A stretch of DNA of 64,000 bases from Candidatus Poribacteria bacterium (GCA_026710795.1 JAPOQK010000023.1:1525-65524); one strand, 5' to 3'; shown: positions 524 through 53,872, counted from the stretch's first letter. Numbers and translations are program-made. The notes: generated by a model not told the origin, from the letters alone.

Positions 524-3500
524 TTAAAATGTACTACCTATCCGAAAATAAAACGGAACTGTGAACACGTCGTCTAATGTGATAAGAGGAACTGCGTAAT
601 CTACTCCAAAAATTAATGGACCGAAGTTTAATCGTAATCCCATACCAACTGAAGACGGTATCCATTTGTACTCAATATCTCCTACGGAATCCCATACATT
701 ACCTGTATCAAAGAAGAGAACTCCATGAAATGGATTATAAATTGGAAAACGCATTTCGGTATTAAAAATGAATTGGACATTTCCACGATGTTTACCAGTA
801 CTATCTTCAGGACCGAGTCCTCTCTCCTCATATCCTCTCACTGTCGTACTACCACCTGCCCAGAATCTTTCAAAGGATATTAACTCTGCTTCATCGTTAT
901 TGTTTAATTGTAAACCGGGTGTATAACCGAACCGCAAGGCATTGGATAATACAAAGCCACGCACAGGTAATTGTCTATGATATTCTGTGTCTGATACAAA
1001 TTTTATAAATCCGCTTTCCCCACCTAAAACCCCACCAGCATATTCAACTGATACTTCGTTAAGCATGCCAGATATAGGGTTTATAGAAGGTATGCGATTA
1101 TCTTGTCTCCATAAGAAACTTAGACTACTAACTGTCGTAGATGGGTTCGATATCAACGGAATTACAGACGAAACTTTCTCAGTTGTATCCTTTAGATACC
1201 GATAGTTGTATTGCAGATTCAAACGGTGCGAACCAAGTAACTTTCTACTCAAAGTAAAACTACCTTGTAAAGCTCTGACATCGTCATCTTCTTCCAATTT
1301 GCGCCCCAGAAATTGTAAACTTCCACTTGTTCTGCCTATCAACCAAGGTTCAGTAAGTGTCGTATCATATATATATCCGCGCGTCCCCCATCTGCCACGC
1401 AAGTGAAATCGAATATTACGTTTGAATAGATTGAAATGACTAAATGCAATTGTACCACGTGGTCCATGAGACGTGCTATATCCAACACTGGCACCGTAGG
1501 TTCTTGGTAAGCGTTTCTGAAGTCGTATTGTGACATCGTTGACTTTCGGTTCAGGGAATGCCTCAACAACTTTATCATTATCACTTATGTTTACGGTATT
1601 ATTTACTTCACTTGTTGGAAAGTCGAACTTGGTTTGGATACCTGGTTCAAAAACTCTTGTGTTGTAAAGATTTTCGACAACAAGATCCAACTTTTCTGTC
1701 GTAAAAAGAGTTCCAGGTAAATTTGCAACTTCGCGATATAGAACCCTTGGAATAACTCCTGTGTCACCTGCAAAATTAAACTTCCCAAAGATAATCTGGT
1801 CACCTTCAACAATATCATATTGAAGAACACCATGTTCATAAACCGAAAGATGTTCCTTTTCTTGATCCAGTGTATAACGAGCGTTACCATCTACATCTTG
1901 GATACTCCATTCAGAACCAATACTTGTCAATGTACCTGAAAGTGAAAGACTGTGTTCACTAAATGCATCTCTCAATTTTTTAGGCAATGTGCCAGAATTA
2001 AGATTTCCTGAATAATCTCCTGAAATCTGAAAAACTGGGGTATCCACTTTATGTAAATATTCTGTTTTTTCTACTTTCGCATAGATATACCCTCGTTCCT
2101 GATATGCTTTTAATATGGCGTTTTCATACTTTTTCTGAACAAGACTGGCATTTGGTTCTGGTGGTTTACTTGGTAATGCATTGTAGAGAGTTACGTCATT
2201 AAGCACCCTGTTTCCCAGAAATTGACATCGGTTAATCATCTCTTTTGTAGGTTCAAAAATAAAGAGATTAATTGAGACTTCACCATCACGCTGTTTATTG
2301 TCGTTATGTTTAATTATTTTTGATGTTATTTCTACATTTCTATATCCTGCCTTTTCATACAAAATCTCTAATCTGTTAATATCCCTTTCAAGCGCAATGT
2401 TGGAAAAATAACGTTTTCTTATATGTCTTGAGAAGAAATTAACCGGCTTGGATTCCATTTCGCGAAGCAATTCTTTGTCGGAAAATGCCTCATTCCCTTC
2501 GAATTCTAATGTTGACACAAAATATCGGATACCATGTTTGACAGTAAATTCTATATGGAGAGGAGAATTCGTTAATGTCCTCGATTTTACTTGTGTTCCG
2601 TGATATCCCTTTGCCTCAAAATGAGTTCTAATTATATCTACCCAACGTGATCTATCGTTGATTAATTGTTCTATTTTTTCTCTCAACTGGTCTCTTTCTG
2701 GTACTACGGTTTCAATATCCAATATTGACAAAAACTGACGAAGAAAGGACTCATTTAGTATTGGTTTACCATTCTCATCCACAAAATCAAGTAAGAGTTG
2801 TTTACCTTCAATAATTTCGTATATCAATACACCACTATTGTGTTTAAAGGAAGACTTTATCACTGTACTTGGATAATACTTTTTTCTATATAGTTCTTGG
2901 ATTGATCTTATGTCTTCATTTACTGTAGATTTCCTATAAATCTGATCTACATTGAGATAACATACTTCCTTAATGTGTTCTGTGAATATCGATGAATTGC
3001 CAATAATTATAAATTCAGTAACATAAGTTGGTTGACCTATTTTAATTTGGTATGTGATGTTCCCTTTTTCAGGTATAGTATCTATTTCTACACTGACATC
3101 AAAATAACCGTTATCTGCACATATTGCTTTGATTGTATTAACATCATCATTAGCAATATACGGTATATATTTATTTCCTGCTTTTAATCTAATTGATGAA
3201 TCAATTACACGTCGAAGTTCATCTGAAACGTCCCCTACAATATTGACTTTTTGTATGTGCATCATCTTGGCTAATTCATATTTTAAAATAACACCTTCTG
3301 GAACAAAGGTAGTGTAAACATCAATTTGCGCATAGGTCTGTTCTGAATAGATAGAGGTAACGCTTTGCTGAACAGCATTCCGAGAAAACGGTGAACCTAT
3401 AGATATTTGAGTCAGTCTTAACAGTTTGCTGAGTAACTCTGTCTCTGTAACAGGAATTGCATCAATTACAAAATCAATCTTTACAATTGCATTCTGTTGA

Positions 3501-3661
3501 GAAGTTTCTATATTTGATTGATTGGAATTATTATCGTTGCAAAGGGCAGGAATTGTGTTTTGGTAAAAGAGGATAATACATAAAACAACAATTGGAATAC
3601 GACTCACAATACTAACAACAAAATTGGATTTCTGAGTATGTTTTTTTCCATGATTACACAT
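524..3661 (-). CDS. bamA: Outer membrane protein assembly factor BamA (Omp85 family), 1045 aa
   Basis: N-terminal signal/TM, long POTRA-like region, C-terminal beta-barrel with aromatic-rich terminal motif (...FYFRIGSTF) typical of Omp85. Sits directly downstream of the tamB-like gene. Confidence 0.8.
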   Translation of the reverse strand: MCNHGKKHTQKSNFVVSIVSRIPIVVLCIILFYQNTIPALCNDNNSNQSNIETSQQNAIVKIDFVIDAIPVTETELLSKLLRLTQISIGSPFSRNAVQQSVTSIYSEQTYAQIDVYTTFVPEGVILKYELAKMMHIQKVNIVGDVSDELRRVIDSSIRLKAGNKYIPYIANDDVNTIKAICADNGYFDVSVEIDTIPEKGNITYQIKIGQPTYVTEFIIIGNSSIFTEHIKEVCYLNVDQIYRKSTVNEDIRSIQELYRKKYYPSTVIKSSFKHNSGVLIYEIIEGKQLLLDFVDENGKPILNESFLRQFLSILDIETVVPERDQLREKIEQLINDRSRWVDIIRTHFEAKGYHGTQVKSRTLTNSPLHIEFTVKHGIRYFVSTLEFEGNEAFSDKELLREMESKPVNFFSRHIRKRYFSNIALERDINRLEILYEKAGYRNVEITSKIIKHNDNKQRDGEVSINLFIFEPTKEMINRCQFLGNRVLNDVTLYNALPSKPPEPNASLVQKKYENAILKAYQERGYIYAKVEKTEYLHKVDTPVFQISGDYSGNLNSGTLPKKLRDAFSEHSLSLSGTLTSIGSEWSIQDVDGNARYTLDQEKEHLSVYEHGVLQYDIVEGDQIIFGKFNFAGDTGVIPRVLYREVANLPGTLFTTEKLDLVVENLYNTRVFEPGIQTKFDFPTSEVNNTVNISDNDKVVEAFPEPKVNDVTIRLQKRLPRTYGASVGYSTSHGPRGTIAFSHFNLFKRNIRFHLRGRWGTRGYIYDTTLTEPWLIGRTSGSLQFLGRKLEEDDDVRALQGSFTLSRKLLGSHRLNLQYNYRYLKDTTEKVSSVIPLISNPSTTVSSLSFLWRQDNRIPSINPISGMLNEVSVEYAGGVLGGESGFIKFVSDTEYHRQLPVRGFVLSNALRFGYTPGLQLNNNDEAELISFERFWAGGSTTVRGYEERGLGPEDSTGKHRGNVQFIFNTEMRFPIYNPFHGVLFFDTGNVWDSVGDIEYKWIPSSVGMGLRLNFGPLIFGVDYAVPLITLDDVFTVPFYFRIGSTF

Positions 3662-3663
3662 TA

Positions 3664-6600
3664 TCAGAAACGCCGCTCCAATAGTTGGATGTCCACTCCA
3701 AAGTCACCCTTTTCATCACCTTCGACTTTGATTGACATATTATTAGGTAACGGATAGATAGCAATAATGTGGCGTTCCTCAGGATCAAAACCAGATGAGA
3801 CAGTGAAAGTGATTCCACCAATTGATCTTGATATCGAATTACCCGGTAATAGAAGTGCCAGTACTTCCGCTTCAGTAAGTGTTTCTGCTGTTGAAGAATT
3901 GAGTAACTCAGATATGTATGTAGGTTTATTATTCTGTAATGTACCCGTAATTGTTAACCTAACATTTACATCTGTTGTGCCTCCATCTTCAAGTAGAACA
4001 CCACGAATAGGATTTGGAAGTCTTAGTATAATATTTAAATCAGGATTAAATTCACGTGGGTTATGATTACGGATACTTGATCCTGGGACAATTTCGAAAA
4101 TCTGTGTGACAGTACTGATCCTTCCTTCAAGGAGGTATATATCCCCAACAAATATTGGTTCTTGAATCAGTCCTGTCAGACGTCCACTACCATTAATTTT
4201 AATGACGGTAGATCCACCAAGAGAGGATATGAATCTAATATTGTCTGGAATTTCAATACCAACATCTAACTGAAGGTTATTCAATATAGTATTACCAACT
4301 GCAAGTTCTACCTGACTTACAGTCGCACCACTAAACCACTCTTGTACGCTTTCCCAATTTTGTTCGTAATCACCCGAATGAATGATTATATCACCACTTA
4401 TGGTTAGATTAGACTGAATCGATTCATCTAAATTTCCATACAAGTGCAGATTATTGTCACCTGTACTGAGTGTTGCATTGTATTGACCGGGTTCAACAAA
4501 ACTGCAATTATCCATACTAACATTTAGATCCAAATAATTGAAACTAAACCAGTCAGAGTGAAGATATCCTGATGCGAAAAAATTACCATCGTTTAATTCA
4601 CCAAATATTGACACAATTTGCAGTTGGGATTCCGTTAATTCAATCTGAACATCTGTTTCACTTATGGAAATAGGAGAACCTTTAATTGAGAAAGATAATG
4701 CGTTGAATTCACCAATACCTGTAAGTTGTGGTTCATCAAGCGTTCCAAATATAGTGGCTGTGACCGAACCATCTCCCTGAACAGATTCAAATGTCGGTTC
4801 AATATCTGACAACATTCCTAACTCGTCCATCGTCAATGTACACTTGACTTCCATCGGGTCCATAACCGGTTCGACTTGCATATTAGAGAAAGAAATCAGA
4901 TAAGGAATATATCCTGAACAGGTAAGTTGATTTCCACCAGATTTTAGAAGTAAAGGGTTACTTTCCTCAATTAACCACTGTTTGGATCCACTGTTATAGT
5001 TGATTGCTCCATTGAATTCATCAATTTTTGCTTGATTAAGAGATAAGTTATCCCCTTCAAAACTAACAGTTATATTAGGTTCTGCATAAGTTCCTGTAAT
5101 ATTTATACCAGTTGATACTAAACCCCTTAGTTTATACGTATCAAGATTAGCTTCTGAAAAAAGCGGATCACAAATTGAAAGATCGAAATTGGTTAGTTTA
5201 AAGTTGAGTAGCATTTTTCCGCGCATATTCCATCTACCATAACTGCTGATTACCATTGGCAATATCGATTCATCTGCCTTGTTTGCGACTGTATTTTGTA
5301 GTTTTAGTTCAGAAACTGTGAATTCACCATTATTCAAATTTATCGGTATTGATGAAGGATTGACAAATCTGAAAAGTTGACCTAATGCAGTAAAACCACA
5401 GGAAAAATTATCAATCCTTAAATCAGCATAAGAATTCTGGCTAACAGCATCAAAGGTTAGTAATTTACTTATTTTAGGTAAAGGTATTCTGTCCCCATTT
5501 TCAAAAAAACTCTCAAACGGTATTATCAACTTCTCCAGAGTCGCGTTCACCGTTCCCTCTATATCCTGTATCAAATTACTTGATATATTCTGCTGTAATA
5601 ATGAACCAAGGGGGTATTCCTTTAATTTTAGACCATTTATCTCTAATCTTTTTGGTGTTAATCCATCCAATATTAACTGACTATGTTGGAATGGTAGAAG
5701 ACTTACCTCTCCTTCATCCAAATCAAATTGAAACTCGGTTAACTCAATAACGTCTTCTCCATTATTATGTTTACCAGCCTGAATTTGAATGATAACATTC
5801 TTAAATATTTGAGGTATATTTTTGTTACGAAGATGGGGGGCATGTACATATACATTTCCCTGTAAATGGAGCTTGGGCAAAGTGCCTGTTAATGCCAAAT
5901 TAATATCAGATACACCTTCAACTTCGGAAATTACATTATTAAGCCAAGGGAAAAAAGTGAGTGGTAATTCATTTCCACTGAGTGTGATATTTGTCGGCAC
6001 ATCTATGAATCTCTCAACAAACTTTTTATCCGATAAGGTCATATCAAATGGGATTATACCTGCAAGAGTCAGATCATTTTCATTGTCGGTTAGTTTTATT
6101 TCAAGTTTAATCTGCTTTTCTGTATATTGTATATTGCTATGCAACTCCAAAGGCATATCTATTTCATTCTGTTGTGAATGTTTTATTTTACCTTGTTGTA
6201 GGACCTCTACGGTTGGAGAGGTTAGGGTTCCACCAATTCGAGCGTCTACTGCAGTTTCAATTATTGGAGAAGTAATTTGGATAGGAAAATGGGAATTTAC
6301 ATTATTATTCTCTAAATTGAAGTCAATTCTTGAGTTATTGAATATATGAAAATCTTGAGTGTACAAATCCATTTCATCTATCTTACATTTAGCTGAAATA
6401 AGTTCAGACTTAATTCCTTTACCTTTTAAAGTAACAGACCCACCCAATGTACCTGTTAGAAAGGATTGGTCTTGACTGATAAATCTGACAAAATCATCTA
6501 CCTTCAATTTCTGAAAAGATACATCAAAATCATACATAATATCATCTCTTTCTTGAGTAGAAATTGATGTCTCACCAGTAATCTGGACACTTCCTTGACC

Positions 6601-24692: not shown

Positions 24693-25520
24693 CTATCGTA
24701 ACCTATCTGATTTAAGTGTACCCCATGTCGTAGTAAATTTGTCTTGTGGTTCAACACTTGTCGCAGCTTGAATTACATCAGCAAATTCAGAGAAATCATC
24801 ATCATCAAAAGCTGAGTTATATACTAACACTTCATCAATTGCGCCACCGAAGTAATGTATGTCTGTTCCACCACCATCGTCATCGTGGAATACAGCATTT
24901 TGATTAGTGTGTGCGATACCAGTATTATCACCATGTGCGAAAAGTTGTCCACCGGGTTCACTTGCAATCTTTACACCATCAAGCCACATCTCAAATTTGT
25001 CATCTTCAACAGCATTTGATCCATCTCTTATCACAAGAGCTACGTGATACCATCTATCAGACTCTACTTCTGCAGAGGGCCACGCACCTGTCCAATTGTA
25101 CTCTGCCCGGTTCCACGCACCAACATAGACCTTTCCCTCATACACATTTATCACAAAACCACGTGTTCTTCCACCTTCATCAAAAATCGTCTGTTTATGA
25201 TCAGAGATACTAACATCAGTGCATTTAAAATATGTAGCAATCGTTCTGTTCATGAAAGGACCGCCAGTATTCAAGCCATTTGAATCAGGTAGTTTGACAC
25301 CATCATCTACACCATCAAATAGTAGAGCCTTTCCAACAATTCCGTCAACAACTTCAGGTTCACCAGCAAATGTACCGTTGACATCATGTCCTGAAGTATC
25401 AGCGGCATCTCCTTCATCAAAAGTCCAAATTGCTCTAACAGTTGCTTCGTCCCTTGCTGCAAAAGCCGCAAGTGTGAAAATCATTATGAAAATGCATAAA
25501 ATTGAGACATTCTTTATCAT
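24693..25520 (-). CDS. Secreted LamG/concanavalin-A-like lectin-fold protein (paralog 1)
   Basis: N-terminal signal peptide (MIKNVSILCIFIMIFTLAAFAA). Motifs GGPF…RT(I/V)A…F(K/N)C…Q(T/V)IF(D/E)EGGRTRG…GKVY(V/G)GAWNRAEY…RWYHVA(L/V)VIRD shared with the adjacent paralog. Jellyroll/pentraxin-like pattern. Confidence 0.5.
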   Translation of the reverse strand: MIKNVSILCIFIMIFTLAAFAARDEATVRAIWTFDEGDAADTSGHDVNGTFAGEPEVVDGIVGKALLFDGVDDGVKLPDSNGLNTGGPFMNRTIATYFKCTDVSISDHKQTIFDEGGRTRGFVINVYEGKVYVGAWNRAEYNWTGAWPSAEVESDRWYHVALVIRDGSNAVEDDKFEMWLDGVKIASEPGGQLFAHGDNTGIAHTNQNAVFHDDDGGGTDIHYFGGAIDEVLVYNSAFDDDDFSEFADVIQAATSVEPQDKFTTTWGTLKSDRLR

Positions 25521-25587
25521 CTGTTTGAACTCCTTATTATAACTTTTGTCACATTTGTATTATATGAAGATATAACCAATTATATCA

Positions 25588-26433
25588 TCATTGATTTTTC
25601 AGTTTTGCCCATGTAGTTGTGAATTTACCTTGTGGTTCAACATTTAGCGGTATTGTCAATTCAAGTATATCCGCTTTAACAAAGGATGAACTGTAGACAA
25701 TCATTTCATCAATCATTCCACTGAACCAATTGATGTTAGTACCATTACCCCCATCATCGTGAAAAACGGCATTTTGATTAACAAAACCAATACCGTTATT
25801 ATCACCATGTGCATGAAGTTGACCACCATCCGTTGAATCAATGAGTTTACCATCCAACCACATTTCAAATTTATCTTTTTCCACTTTTCCAGCAGCATCT
25901 CGTATGACTACAGCAACGTGGTACCATCTATCTGAATTTATGTCCGCTGATATCCATTCTCCTTGCCAATGGTATTCTGCTCTATTCCAAGCTCCACCAT
26001 ATACTTTACCATCAAATACATAGATTGCTAATCCACGCGTTCTTCCACCTTCTTCAAATATAACTTGGTGTTGATCTTTGTCAACATTGTCACAGTTAAA
26101 AAAAGCTGCGACAGTTCGCTTGGGAAATGGTCCTCCAGTATTGATTCTGGGTGAATCGGGAATCTGTATTCCGTCACTACTCCCATTAAATCTCAAGGCA
26201 TCATTTACTATCCCTTTTACGGATTCAGGTTTACCGACAATTGTTCCATTTAAAGATTGATTAGAACTATCCTTAGCAGTTCCATCGTCAAATGTCCAGA
26301 TTCCTGCAACGGTTCCTTCATCACGTTGTGCTTCCACAGGTGTGAAAATAAAAAATGACAACGTAAAAATTATGATAAAAGTAGGAAAGATAGGATTTTG
26401 TAAAACGTTGCAATTTTTCAATACTTGAAACAT
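25588..26433 (-). CDS. Secreted LamG/concanavalin-A-like lectin-fold protein (paralog 2)
   Basis: ~50% identical to 24693..25520 over the whole length, including TTTWG(T/A)LK near the C-terminus. Signal/TM at N-terminus. Confidence 0.5.
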   Translation of the reverse strand: MFQVLKNCNVLQNPIFPTFIIIFTLSFFIFTPVEAQRDEGTVAGIWTFDDGTAKDSSNQSLNGTIVGKPESVKGIVNDALRFNGSSDGIQIPDSPRINTGGPFPKRTVAAFFNCDNVDKDQHQVIFEEGGRTRGLAIYVFDGKVYGGAWNRAEYHWQGEWISADINSDRWYHVAVVIRDAAGKVEKDKFEMWLDGKLIDSTDGGQLHAHGDNNGIGFVNQNAVFHDDGGNGTNINWFSGMIDEMIVYSSSFVKADILELTIPLNVEPQGKFTTTWAKLKNQ

Positions 26434-26686
26434 TTAGTTGCCTCCTATTTATCATTGTATCATTAATATAACTTGTTATAAGTTAGATGCTTTTAAATTT
26501 CTATAAATTAGATTATATATAATATACAAAAACATTATTTTTTTGTCAATATATGACACGATATTTCCAAGATTAAATTATTCTTAACTTTTTGGAATAT
26601 TAAACAACAAGCGTAAATACATTAGAATATATTCGTTGGTTGGGTTTGACTATGCTCAACTCATAACTGACATTTTAAGTTCTTCG

Positions 26687-26775
26687 TAGGTCGGAGCGAG
26701 TTTGCGACCTCCGACACGTATCATTTCATTAGGGTTCACATGTCGGAACGAGTTTGCGACCTCCGACCTACAAGA
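26687..26775. repeat. MITE-like palindromic repeat element (TIRs cTTCGTAGGTCGGAG / CTCCGACCTACAAGag) with internal 19-nt direct repeat CGAGTTTGCGACCTCCGAC x2
   Basis: Terminal motifs match those of the element at 21723..21812. Internal sequence is different but also strongly self-complementary. Confidence 0.45.
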
Positions 26776-29644: not shown

Positions 29645-29737
29645 GAACAATCTGATTTGGTCTGTTTTCTTGTGTTTTCTGTCAGAACCCCAAATTTAAT
29701 GAAAATTCAATAAAATATCTATAGTCAATATATTAAT

Positions 29738-29766
29738 TTGACATATACAAAAGAATACTATATAAT
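29738..29766 (+). promoter_or_regulatory. Perfect consensus sigma70-type promoter TTGACA-N17-TATAAT (copy A of a duplicated module)
   Basis: TTGACA 29738..29743, 17-nt spacer, TATAAT 29761..29766, with A/T-rich upstream. The same module, including the flanks aatTTGACA…caaaaaga(a)tacTATATAATtaaca..tgtttagaata, recurs at 53177..53205. Confidence 0.5.
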
Positions 29767-29883
29767 TAACACGTGTTTAGAATAAAGATGTATCGGGTTC
29801 TATGTTCTTTCAAAAGGTGAAACAATTTTCGTAGATAAGATTGAATAAAACAGATAAAAAGGAATTTAAAAAAACACGAAAAT

Positions 29884-29947
29884 CGCGTCACTTTCCTTGT
29901 CCAGACTGGATTCTAAACGTCACAGTGACGTGCAAAACGTCACATTT
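29884..29947 (+). promoter_or_regulatory. Conserved 64-nt palindrome-rich block (copy A), possible operator cluster or RNA element in the 5' leader
   Basis: CGCGTCACtTTCCTTGTCCaGACTGGATTCTAAACGTCACAGTGACGTGcAAAACGTCACATTT. Nearly identical to 53417..53481. Contains the perfect palindrome ACGTCAC-A-GTGACGT plus two further (C)GTCAC half-sites and TCCAG-A-CTGGA. Confidence 0.35.
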
Positions 29948-30205
29948 AAAACAGGCAAAATACGGAAGATTATAAAGAAAAAATGTTAGGACTTTGAATT
30001 GGAATGGATAGATGTTTATTGGATTCACCTTTTATTATCTGAACCAGGATTTCCCAAATCCTGCGTGAAAAACCTAAAACTAAATGATCCTGCCTATTAT
30101 TGTTATTGATTGAATTTCGTATTTCTAATAAAATACAACAGTGGATTATTCCTTTTAAAGCTATAAATTTGATTGTTATTATAAATAAGCATAAGGTATT
30201 AGAAT

Positions 30206-43729: not shown

Positions 43730-43921
43730 ATAACCCCATTCAAAATTTTAATATAAAGCATGAGTTTACACTCTTACTATACAGGATTATCTAAAATGGG
43801 TCAAGGTATGTGAATCATAGTCTGATAATATTACATCTTGACATGCGTTATTTAATTGATATAATTGTATGTTGTGGTATAACATAATTGATACATTTAT
43901 CTGAACAAATTTACCTGCACA

Positions 43922-52865: not shown

Positions 52866-53122
52866 TGTTTATTGTCTGAACCAGGATTTACAGGATTATG
52901 AGCTGGTGTATATATTCCGTTTCAAAGGATGTAAGGTTACCTTATGCAAAGGGATATAGGAATATCAAACTCTTATCCTGCTAATCCTATAATCCCGGGG
53001 AATGCCAAAAGGCATTCATACCCGACAAATGCCATACGCGCATTTGGCGTTGATTTGGGGGAAATCCAACAGGCGTTCATACCGTTGATTTCTTGATTTG
53101 GTAAATCCTGGTTCAGACAAAC
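52866..53122. repeat. Composite MITE-like element bounded by inverted repeats TGTCTGAACCAGGATTTAC / GGTAAATCCTGGTTCAGACA, containing GAATGCC-aaaa-GGCATTC and related hairpins
   Basis: Terminal 19-20 nt are inverted copies. Interior contains two copies of the GGC(A/G)TTCATACC…GTTGATTT core shared with 21752..21780. A third copy of the TCTGAACCAGGATTT unit lies at 30036..30050. Confidence 0.45.
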
Positions 53123-53176
53123 ACAGTTTAATATAAAATACCAATATATATCCAATAAAACATTTCACTTTTTAAT

Positions 53177-53205
53177 TTGACACCCACAAAAAGATACTAT
53201 ATAAT
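53177..53205 (+). promoter_or_regulatory. Perfect consensus sigma70-type promoter TTGACA-N17-TATAAT (copy B of the duplicated module)
   Basis: TTGACA 53177..53182, 17-nt spacer, TATAAT 53200..53205. Flanking ~55 nt conserved with 29735..29795. Confidence 0.5.
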
Positions 53206-53416
53206 TAACATTTGTTTAGAATATAGAATTATATCTGTGACACGAATTGAGATACGTTAGAAGGAAGTATAAACACAAATTCACCTATTGTGTAATGTTT
53301 GATTTTTGATTCTAAGGGACTGTATATGGGTTTTCTAAGTTTCATGTCTTGCAAATTATGAAGGTAGGTCAAGGCAAGTAAAAAAACCAAAAAGGCGCAA
53401 AAAAAAAAGCGAAATT

Positions 53417-53481
53417 CGCGTCACATTCCTTGTCCTGACTGGATTCTAAACGTCACAGTGACGTGTCAAAACGTCACATTT
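53417..53481 (+). promoter_or_regulatory. Conserved palindrome-rich 65-nt block (copy B)
   Basis: CGCGTCACaTTCCTTGTCCtGACTGGATTCTAAACGTCACAGTGACGTGtcAAAACGTCACATTT. Matches copy A at 29884..29947 in about 62 of 65 positions. Lies ~390 nt upstream of the DUF1501 gene. Confidence 0.35.
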
Positions 53482-53872
53482 GAATGCACATATCGGTAAT
53501 CAACATAACACTAATTTGACAGATATAGGTTTGCTTCGCTGTACAGACTACGATATAACTATTAATAACACCAATCTACAGATTATTCTTAAAACATAGT
53601 AAACTTGGTGTGCAGTTTTTTACTTGTATTTGATTTATATGTATGGTATTATATAGTCAATGTCCATCATTATATGAAGAATAGTATTGTGTGTAGAATC
53701 CAATTAAATATTTAGTGAGTATTTACGGTATCAAGGTAATTGTATTTACAACGTCAACTAATTATATCTACCCCGCAGGTGTAGGCACTACAACAGACTT
53801 TCTAAGCGGGACAATATTAAGGAGAGGCATTCGTTAGCCAATAGGCTTCCGTTTAATTGCTATAAACTGAAA

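Follow-up and report, generated by a model that had tools for sequence, protein, structure and literature searches.

REP/BIME elements combine a GTAG-type 5' motif with an imperfect palindrome of 20-40 nt, are present in hundreds of copies and lie mostly at the 3' ends of genes. Lambdoid operators consist of adjacent sites beside the regulator gene; the operators of phages lie over the promoters that they regulate, and each prophage has a single set. In Neisseria, the regulator gene crgA is among the genes associated with REP2 repeats. REP2 may form a co-regulated set (PMC3184786). The BOX repeat has a modular boxA-boxB-boxC build and measures 67-637 bp; BOX and Correia repeats are both dispersed in intergenic regions at ~100 or more copies, and some contain promoters or sites bound by proteins and influence the genes beside them (PMC3184786). 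Putative mobile promoters are stretches of 50-100 nt that are at least 80% identical and lie upstream of non-homologous genes in one genome, in families of up to 93 (Matus-Garcia et al. 2012, PMC3488235).

The repeat described here, referred to as the cassette, occurs twice in the window, i.e., the whole 64,000-nt stretch of Candidatus Poribacteria DNA that was analysed. It resembles the REP2/CREN repeats of Neisseria, which are non-coding, carry a promoter, measure ~150 bp or more and lie directly upstream of unrelated genes, facing them. REP2, however, supplies a ribosome-binding site and abuts the start codon, whereas the cassette ends ~18 nt before a separate native promoter; the cassette is also 3-4 times longer, modular, equipped with an internal repeat array and present in up to ~100 copies per genome, and the two share no sequence similarity. 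With pneumococcal BOX and the Correia elements of Neisseria it has the dispersed intergenic location in common, and with BOX the modularity; in contrast to both, it shows a strict bias in orientation toward the gene and keeps a constant distance to a -35, and Correia elements possess 26-bp terminal inverted repeats and target duplications, neither of which is present in the cassette. The definition of putative mobile promoters covers the promoter module of the window, which is 61 nt long at 84% identity, lies upstream of aroQ and DUF1501 and has dozens more copies; that class is purely operational, specifying no architecture, operator array, fixed spacing or mechanism, and the underlying survey of 1362 genomes (PMC3488235) apparently did not include Poribacteria. 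Several adjacent palindromic or half sites beside a regulator's own gene recall the operators of P22 c2 and lambda CI, and the domain of the candidate binder is closest to P22 c2; unlike phage operators, the array lies downstream of its promoter P1 and recurs along the chromosome, and the cassettes showed no prophage context. Membership in REP/BIME was rejected because architecture and position differ; a true REP-like family is separate (window 26683-26767). The cassette is thus set apart from the closest known repeats by its internal array, strict orientation, fixed -35 distance and absent inverted repeats. A literature search for the palindrome or for Poribacteria repeats returned nothing relevant and no description of the family.

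Two copies of one repeat unit in the window

The sequence-only reading had proposed that a consensus promoter module and a 64-nt palindrome-rich block are duplicated in the window, and both are found where it had placed them. The modules were correctly described, but they are only part of units of ~390 and ~475 bp: promoter module and palindrome block are two parts of one non-coding repeat of ~400-500 bp, and similarity to other family members extends from ~35-45 nt 5' of the -35 to ~130-150 nt past the block. The features of the two units and of their surroundings are as follows:

29702..30092, plus strand: complete repeat unit A, of type A, with an AT-rich left arm at one end and the right-end motif CTAAAACTAAATGATCCTG at the other; bounds taken from type A/B metagenome copies
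29738..29766, plus strand: P1 of unit A, a perfect TTGACA-N17-TATAAT; predicted start at ~29773
29767..29783, plus strand: initial transcribed motif of unit A, TAACACGTGTTTAGAAT, shared by most of the 40 listed copies that have a promoter
29868..29874, plus strand: A-run 5' of block A; its length is 7 to 12 among copies
29884..29947, plus strand: block A, GTCAC-repeat array of three repeats including the palindrome
29884-29891 (A) and 53417-53424 (B), plus strand: repeat 1, CGCGTCAC, within the block
29917-29931 (A) and 53450-53464 (B), plus strand: 15-bp palindrome ACGTCACAGTGACGT, within the block
29937-29943 (A) and 53471-53477 (B), plus strand: third repeat, ACGTCAC, within the block
30074..30092, plus strand: right-end motif of unit A, CTAAAACTAAATGATCCTG, with 3 mismatches to the family right end CCGAAAACTAAATAACCCTG
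30106..30134, plus strand: native aroQ promoter, TTGATT-N17-TAAAAT, outside the unit, 13 nt past the right end of unit A; conserved in loci L133 and L130
53133..53607, plus strand: repeat unit B (type B), whole, from ATAAAATACCAATATATATCC to CTTAAAACATAGTAAACTTG
53177..53205, plus strand: P1 of unit B, a perfect TTGACA-N17-TATAAT; predicted start at ~53212
53206..53222, plus strand: initial transcribed motif of unit B, TAACATTTGTTTAGAAT
53399..53408, plus strand: A-run 5' of block B
53417..53481, plus strand: block B, GTCAC-repeat array of three repeats including the palindrome
53588..53607, plus strand: right-end motif of unit B
53622..53652, plus strand: native DUF1501-rsmD promoter, ACTTGT...TATTAT, outside the unit, ~15 nt past the right end; conserved in L134, L135 and L136

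The two promoter modules (29733-29793 and 53172-53232) are 84% identical over 61 nt and the block pair (29846-29937 and 53379-53470) 83% over 92 nt; within the block core (~29884-29947 and 53417-53481) the differences are confined to two bases and one 1-nt indel. Perfect consensus promoters occur three times in the 64 kb when both strands are counted; two of them are the P1 promoters of units A and B, the third (43838-43865) is an ordinary promoter ahead of a gene. Shuffled sequence yields 0.1 expected matches to a 17-mer containing the palindrome and 0 to the 37-nt promoter pattern, which rules out chance duplication, in line with the earlier view that such promoters are rare and unlikely to arise twice by chance. 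Assembly duplication is ruled out as well, in line with the earlier argument from the divergent middles: the middles differ, and independent assemblies from the same species have the same dppC-aroQ spacer of 561 nt. A coding region across the block was rejected, since the variation of the A-run between 7 and 12 would break any reading frame. A profile search of the window for additional degenerate copies revealed none beyond the two. Elsewhere in the window, paralogous segments are arrayed in tandem at 24711-26076 (period 874-886 nt, identity 72-84%); they are probably two neighbouring paralogous genes.

A repeat family of Candidatus Poribacteria

An exact scan for ACGTCACNGTGACGT followed by ACGTCAC, carried out on one genome per species for 185,579 species, retrieved 62 loci. 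Candidatus Poribacteria account for 49 of these; the remaining 13 stem from high-GC organisms and are devoid of the flanking consensus. The block is specific to Candidatus Poribacteria. The window, too, is Poribacteria DNA, since NCBI lists the identical AroQ protein under that name. A second scan, which required no more than repeat 1 and the left half-palindrome, added 62 further copies on low-GC metagenome contigs, among them eight matches on a 384-kb contig and eight on a 552-kb contig. The search for further copies suggested by the sequence-only reading has accordingly returned more than 100 in public Poribacteria sequence rather than none. Sponge-symbiont genomes contain 4-11 strict copies each, dispersed along complete chromosomes, and in the low-GC lineage to which the window belongs the density is ~1 copy per 50-70 kb, i.e., of the order of a hundred per genome.

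An alignment of 43 diverse copies, whose CGTCAC repeats had been prescribed by the search pattern, reads A-run, CGAAAAT, yACGTCAC, ATTCC, ~20 variable nt, TCTGC, ACGTCAC-W-GTGACGT, TnnAA, ACGTCAC, and one or two extra ACGTCAC often trail the third repeat. In most of the ~60 copies from the second scan GTGACGT is intact. The third repeat retains GTCAC, while the base preceding it drifts (C, G or A) and the would-be pairing partner shows no compensating change; in low-GC copies this repeat is mostly GGTCAC or AGTCAC. In locus L137, the palindrome is doubled (CGTCACGTCACA/TGTGACGTGACA). The array as a whole comprises a perfect 15-bp palindrome and 2-4 further GTCAC repeats at conserved spacing; the constant feature of the block seems to be the GTCAC motif and not base pairing.

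Several types of unit can be distinguished. Relatives of window copy B (type B) measure 480-495 bp and run from TAATATAC to CCGAAAACTAAATAACCCTG; unit B is 84-87% identical to ~15 type B metagenome copies over 400-570 nt. Type A, represented by window copy A, has a shorter middle and a different right arm, and ends in the same right-end motif (30074-30092). Type C units do not carry a sigma-70 promoter; in its place are a hairpin, a Shine-Dalgarno site and an open frame of 29 aa. In short forms, the CCTGGTTCAGA motif is fused directly to the A-run. P1, as a perfect or near-perfect TTGACA-N17-TATAAT, is present in ~60% of the low-GC copies and missing from ~40% (type C and short forms); dozens of family copies have a P1-type promoter with the conserved spacer, and in most promoter-bearing low-GC copies TAACAnnTGTTTAGAAT follows directly after the -10. 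In L032 and L001, two loci of the sponge lineage, the initial transcribed motif is present with one or two changes. Paralogues are 84-94% identical (mean 89%), the window copy being 86% identical to the others.

A number of further observations concern the units and their surroundings. In type C units (L067, L077, L079, L083, L087, L101, L112, L122), a strong Shine-Dalgarno sequence and the conserved 29-codon frame MKFNDIHKQFAVKSFAKMMTRSETQGRSR lie ~100 nt 5' of the block, with the hairpin GTTACCATACGGTAAC ahead of them; at least 10 copies have this arrangement. The short motif AATCCTGGTTCAGA(C)AAA is dispersed and found in the window at 53100-53125 (plus strand), 30035-30060 (minus strand) and 52875-52885 (minus strand); it is often the immediate left neighbour of type B units, and is fused to the A-run of the block in L075, L100, L107, L114 and L124, as if at a recombination or deletion junction. 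Two copies of a REP-like repeat, GTAG followed by the palindrome GTAGGTCGGAGCGAGCnnnGCGACCTCCGAC, are located 52 nt apart at window positions 26683-26767, and this family adjoins many cassette copies in metagenome loci (L066, L069, L085, L116 and others); a second REP-like type, GTAGGGGCGAGG...CCTCGCCC, is seen in L133, L017 and L020. Short-read contigs start or end in or beside the block or unit in SB0677_bin_25 (L017, L020, L028, L036, L039, L041) and in L129 and L130, which indicates that the repeat fragments assemblies of these genomes.

Position, orientation and empty sites

Cassettes face the gene that follows them. The nearest downstream gene is co-oriented for 43 of 49 low-GC copies (the upstream gene being divergent in 30 and tandem in 16) and for ~33 of 42 copies in the sponge lineage. 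The distance to the next promoter is likewise fixed: of 17 distinct copies, 11 have their best sigma-70-like promoter beginning 17-19 nt past the right-end motif, as compared to 3.9% of shuffles, and 10 of these 11 promoters match at least 9 of the 12 consensus bases. In the window, the distances from the right end of the unit to the native promoter are 13 nt (aroQ) and ~15 nt (DUF1501). The downstream genes, which include rplM, yebC, a leuA-like gene, moaA, and genes for a sulfatase and a TonB receptor, are functionally unrelated, and a search for a functional theme among them found none, as would be expected for a dispersed cassette.

At orthologous positions in relatives both units of the window are missing. 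In L133, where AroQ is 88% identical and the dppB-dppC-aroQ synteny is the same, the spacer measures 317 nt and contains neither promoter module nor block, and its proximal ~110 nt including the aroQ promoter are kept; L130 breaks before the unit. L134-L136 (DUF1501 87-92% identical, same DUF1501-rsmD-GH31 synteny) likewise have no unit and keep the proximal promoter and the leader hairpin upstream of DUF1501. Since these relatives possess the native promoters without the unit, the units are lineage-specific insertions rather than ancestral leaders. The reading as a riboswitch or an ancestral cis-regulatory leader belonging to the downstream operon is accordingly rejected; of the shared cis-regulatory leader considered in the sequence-only reading, the location of the cassette upstream of both operons holds, but the cassette has been added to promoters that exist without it.

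The DUF1501 hairpin itself, CACCTATCCCGCAGGTG (CTACCCCGCAGGTGTAG in the window, at ~53765-53790), is situated in the 5' leader ~85 nt 5' of the ATG; it is kept in L134, L135 and L136 (~2390-2420), all without the cassette, and may be a separate cis-regulatory element. In seven to eight species (L005, L012, L019, L043, L052, L060, L061, and L014), the block occupies one syntenic site between a conserved gene of 272-293 aa without Pfam match and a WD40-repeat gene, 10-30 nt past the stop codon of the former. In the sponge-lineage loci L006 and L056, the stop codon of a gene for an ECF sigma factor stands directly before the block; in L006, a consensus promoter for a cluster of six tRNA genes and the SRP RNA follows downstream of the block.

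Candidate binder of the array

With a short invariant motif in direct and inverted copies whose spacing is conserved, the block resembles a protein-binding array. The best candidate for the binder is suggested by the gene that follows the array in a subset of sponge-lineage loci: in L001, L010, L013, L049 and L050, all detected through a DNA pattern, a gene for an HTH_3 protein of 170-177 aa, preceded by a Shine-Dalgarno site, has its ATG 35-40 nt past the end of the array. It has the same position in L137, L138 and L139, which were fetched by protein alone and encode divergent orthologues (59-63% identity). The array thus precedes the XRE gene in 8 of 8 loci examined, all from sponge-lineage genomes and two of them nearly identical to each other.

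The XRE protein has a helix-turn-helix of the Cro/C1 type, with HTH_3 above the Pfam cutoff in 3 of 4 cases. The nearest counterpart of its DNA-binding domain is that of the P22 c2 repressor (profile E-value 5e-4; Foldseek 36% identity, 1.7 A), the recognition helix (VSYRT..RWL) is invariant in 34 homologues, and the C-terminal helical hairpin could serve dimerisation. The family comprises 67 clusters, of which the few with a source name are from Poribacteria, and there is ~1 member per genome. The GTCAC array is most likely a docking array for this phylum-specific phage-repressor-like regulator, the candidate binder. Operator arrays of XRE/Cro-CI type regulators typically combine a palindromic site of 14-18 bp with further sites in a row and are also found before the regulator's own gene; the GTCAC array, with its 15-bp palindrome and its position ahead of the XRE gene, shares both traits. 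If the half-site is GTCAC, the half-site centres of the palindrome are 6 bp apart, and the outer ACGT tetramers are 11 bp apart; the fit to a classical helix-turn-helix dimer needs the outer ACGT tetramers as contacts. No XRE homologue is encoded in the 64-kb window or in the low-GC loci examined, and the protein search for the family returned no clearly low-GC member; the lineage richest in copies may therefore use another binder.

Other kinds of site were considered for the block. A sigma-54, ECF-type or internal sigma-70 promoter inside it seems unlikely, as judged by eye from misfitting spacings. A parS, matS, Ter or other chromosome-organising site is likewise improbable: copies are dispersed along complete chromosomes and tied to gene starts.

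Proposed function and alternative explanations

The family with its architecture, orientation, fixed position, empty orthologous sites and XRE-gene association is established, and it is best explained, at a probability of roughly 0.45, by a dispersed, Poribacteria-specific promoter-plus-operator cassette with a binder, a roadblock action and a mode of spread that we infer. This cassette could act in the following manner: It sits immediately 5' of a native promoter (P2), facing the downstream gene. In the layout of the window type, the sigma-70 consensus promoter P1 is followed by a type-specific transcribed stretch, the A-run and the array of three to five GTCAC repeats, and the right arm after the array ends ~18 nt before the -35 of P2. 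The array would serve as a platform for a dimeric helix-turn-helix protein, the XRE/P22-c2-like regulator being the best candidate. As the array lies between P1 and P2, its occupancy would gate or block read-through from P1 into the gene; when the array is empty, P1 may add to P2. Of the possibilities raised in the sequence-only reading, the best fit is the third, a cluster of operators that a dimeric regulator would bind 3' of a strong promoter, with GTCAC conserved phylum-wide and the array present in all eight XRE-gene leaders. Gating of P1 cannot be the whole function, since ~40% of the low-GC copies do not have P1. At the XRE loci, the array stands directly before the gene without right arm and P2, and the mechanism may differ there from that of the dispersed copies.

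The same features may be read as those of a selfish, non-autonomous mobile element without host function, a reading we consider possible, if unlikely. Array and arm motifs would then be sites for a recombinase or accessory protein that moves the element, P1 would be the element's own or a captured promoter, and the positional bias would reflect targeting near promoters together with the purging of harmful insertions. High copy number, copies that break assemblies (SB0677_bin_25 contigs end inside the block), emptiness of both window sites in related species, modular, truncated or deleted subtypes, the fixed distance to a -35, unrelated functions of downstream genes and a weak match of the XRE protein to transposase-type helix-turn-helix and leucine-zipper Pfam families would all be accounted for. 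With 390-495 bp, the absence of coding capacity, multiple copies and empty sites in L133 and L134-L136, the units also share traits with MITEs. A classic MITE or a derivative of the IS200/IS605 type was nevertheless rejected, and the points that decide this also weigh against a selfish element in general: in seven type B copies the left 45 nt and the reverse complement of the right 45 nt score 6-7, i.e., at chance level, a pair of inverted-repeat arms was not found in the window, the flanks share only 4-5 nt strings that differ per copy instead of a target-site duplication, no conserved flanking tetranucleotide was found, and no transposase is consistently near the cassettes. Moreover, none of the paralogues is identical to another, which speaks against a recent burst, and the block has been kept at syntenic sites in the 7-8 sponge-lineage species (between the 272-aa gene and the WD40 gene) and before the XRE gene across 56-96% protein identity, a persistence that argues for long-term selection. 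Two loci with transposase-related genes were noted: in L048 (~2850-3400), the coding end of an IS3-family-like transposase, its frame judged by eye, abuts the block, the upstream half of the block consensus being missing; in L049, a TnpB (OrfB_IS605) gene (3244-4398) lies ~600 bp upstream of the cassette before the XRE gene.

Mobility and regulation would be combined in a cassette that is a promoter-seeking non-autonomous element, inserted in one orientation ~18 nt 5' of the -35 of sigma-70 promoters (near -54 from the start), by which ~100 unrelated genes per genome would be wired to one phage-repressor-like regulator; insertion would proceed without inverted repeats or target duplications. 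We regard this joint reading as rather doubtful. Targeting might read promoter DNA or bound RNA polymerase, or follow P1 RNA as a guide. If true, a regulon would have been built by transposing an operator-plus-promoter module.

The remaining alternatives assign the function to RNA. A small-RNA gene family, as proposed in the sequence-only reading, is quite improbable: P1 would drive an RNA of ~180-280 nt, in which the conserved 5' motif and the 3' block form a scaffold around a type-specific middle and which acts in trans or as a sponge for an ACGUCAC-recognising protein. Such an RNA would explain the perfect promoter of its own with the conserved initial transcribed motif behind it and the type-specific middles between conserved ends, and some pairing is indeed possible. 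The two window copies both show a 9-bp pairing of GUUUAGAAU with AUUCUAAAC, other copies pair at 7-9 of 9 positions, GUGACGU could form 7 bp with the next ACGUCAC, and A-to-G changes in a small hairpin that lies between repeat 1 and the palindrome are accommodated on the plus strand as G-U pairs. The comparison of copies does not sustain these structures. Across 40 copies, the 3' side of the 5'-3' pairing changes while the 5' side is constant, without compensation and with 7-8 of 9 pairs left in most copies, so that the closing stem, perfect in the window, was rejected; the check for covariation that had been suggested gave nothing convincing, and no covarying pair was found within the block. 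The drift of the third repeat in low-GC copies destroys two pairs of the possible GUGACGU/ACGUCAC helix, again uncompensated, and the small hairpin is present in many copies and lacking in others (mean z-score -0.9). Folding z-scores of the window copies are weak, at -1.4 and -1.2, and alignment folding of the plus strand is no better than that of the minus strand (-33.4 versus -30.9). A known RNA family was rejected: a search of the window and 18 loci with Rfam 15 gave nothing at gathering thresholds and nothing meaningful at E-values up to 10, and the window contains no tRNA or tmRNA. Neither unit has a plus-strand terminator, many copies are without P1 or lie 10-30 nt past a stop codon, and the unit goes on for ~150 nt past the block, up to a set distance from the next promoter. 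A terminator-like site occurs solely on the minus strand (29889-29873). A minus-strand small RNA ending at the T-run was nevertheless rejected: hairpin and T-run are present in the window copies, but a conserved promoter on that strand is lacking, and the plus-strand gene of the XRE loci begins 40 nt past the block. Altogether, the evidence for a structured RNA is weak; the conserved initial transcribed motif and the partial 5'-3' complementarity (7-9 of 9) may leave room for an RNA role.

An RNA attenuator, in which the left repeat and the right half of the palindrome form an antiterminator or the right half and the third repeat a terminator, and in which an ACGUCAC-binding protein decides between them, is highly improbable. 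The succession of ACGUCAC, GUGACGU and ACGUCAC does permit two mutually exclusive hairpins, and AAUUUUUA follows the second one in many type B copies. A U-tract is, however, absent from the window copies (AUUUAAAA, AUUUGAAU) and from nearly all sponge-lineage copies, the loop of the first hairpin would measure 1 nt, and the prevalence of GGUCAC or AGUCAC as third repeat in the low-GC lineage cuts the supposed terminator to 5 bp.

Implications

Poribacteria are uncultured, and their gene regulation is known from sequence only. For this phylum, the family provides a concrete handle: a phylum-wide 15-bp palindrome with its array, a candidate for the cognate regulator, and a set of target genes that could be compiled for any genome. 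Short-read assemblies of Poribacteria genomes are broken by the repeat, and the strong consensus promoters before many genes matter for annotation and for the reading of metatranscriptomes. The rule that the cassette ends ~18 nt before a -35 would point to a choice of insertion site that is, to our knowledge, without precedent among bacterial elements. If the array is an operator, the low-GC lineage would illustrate how such a module can come to occupy about a hundred promoters.
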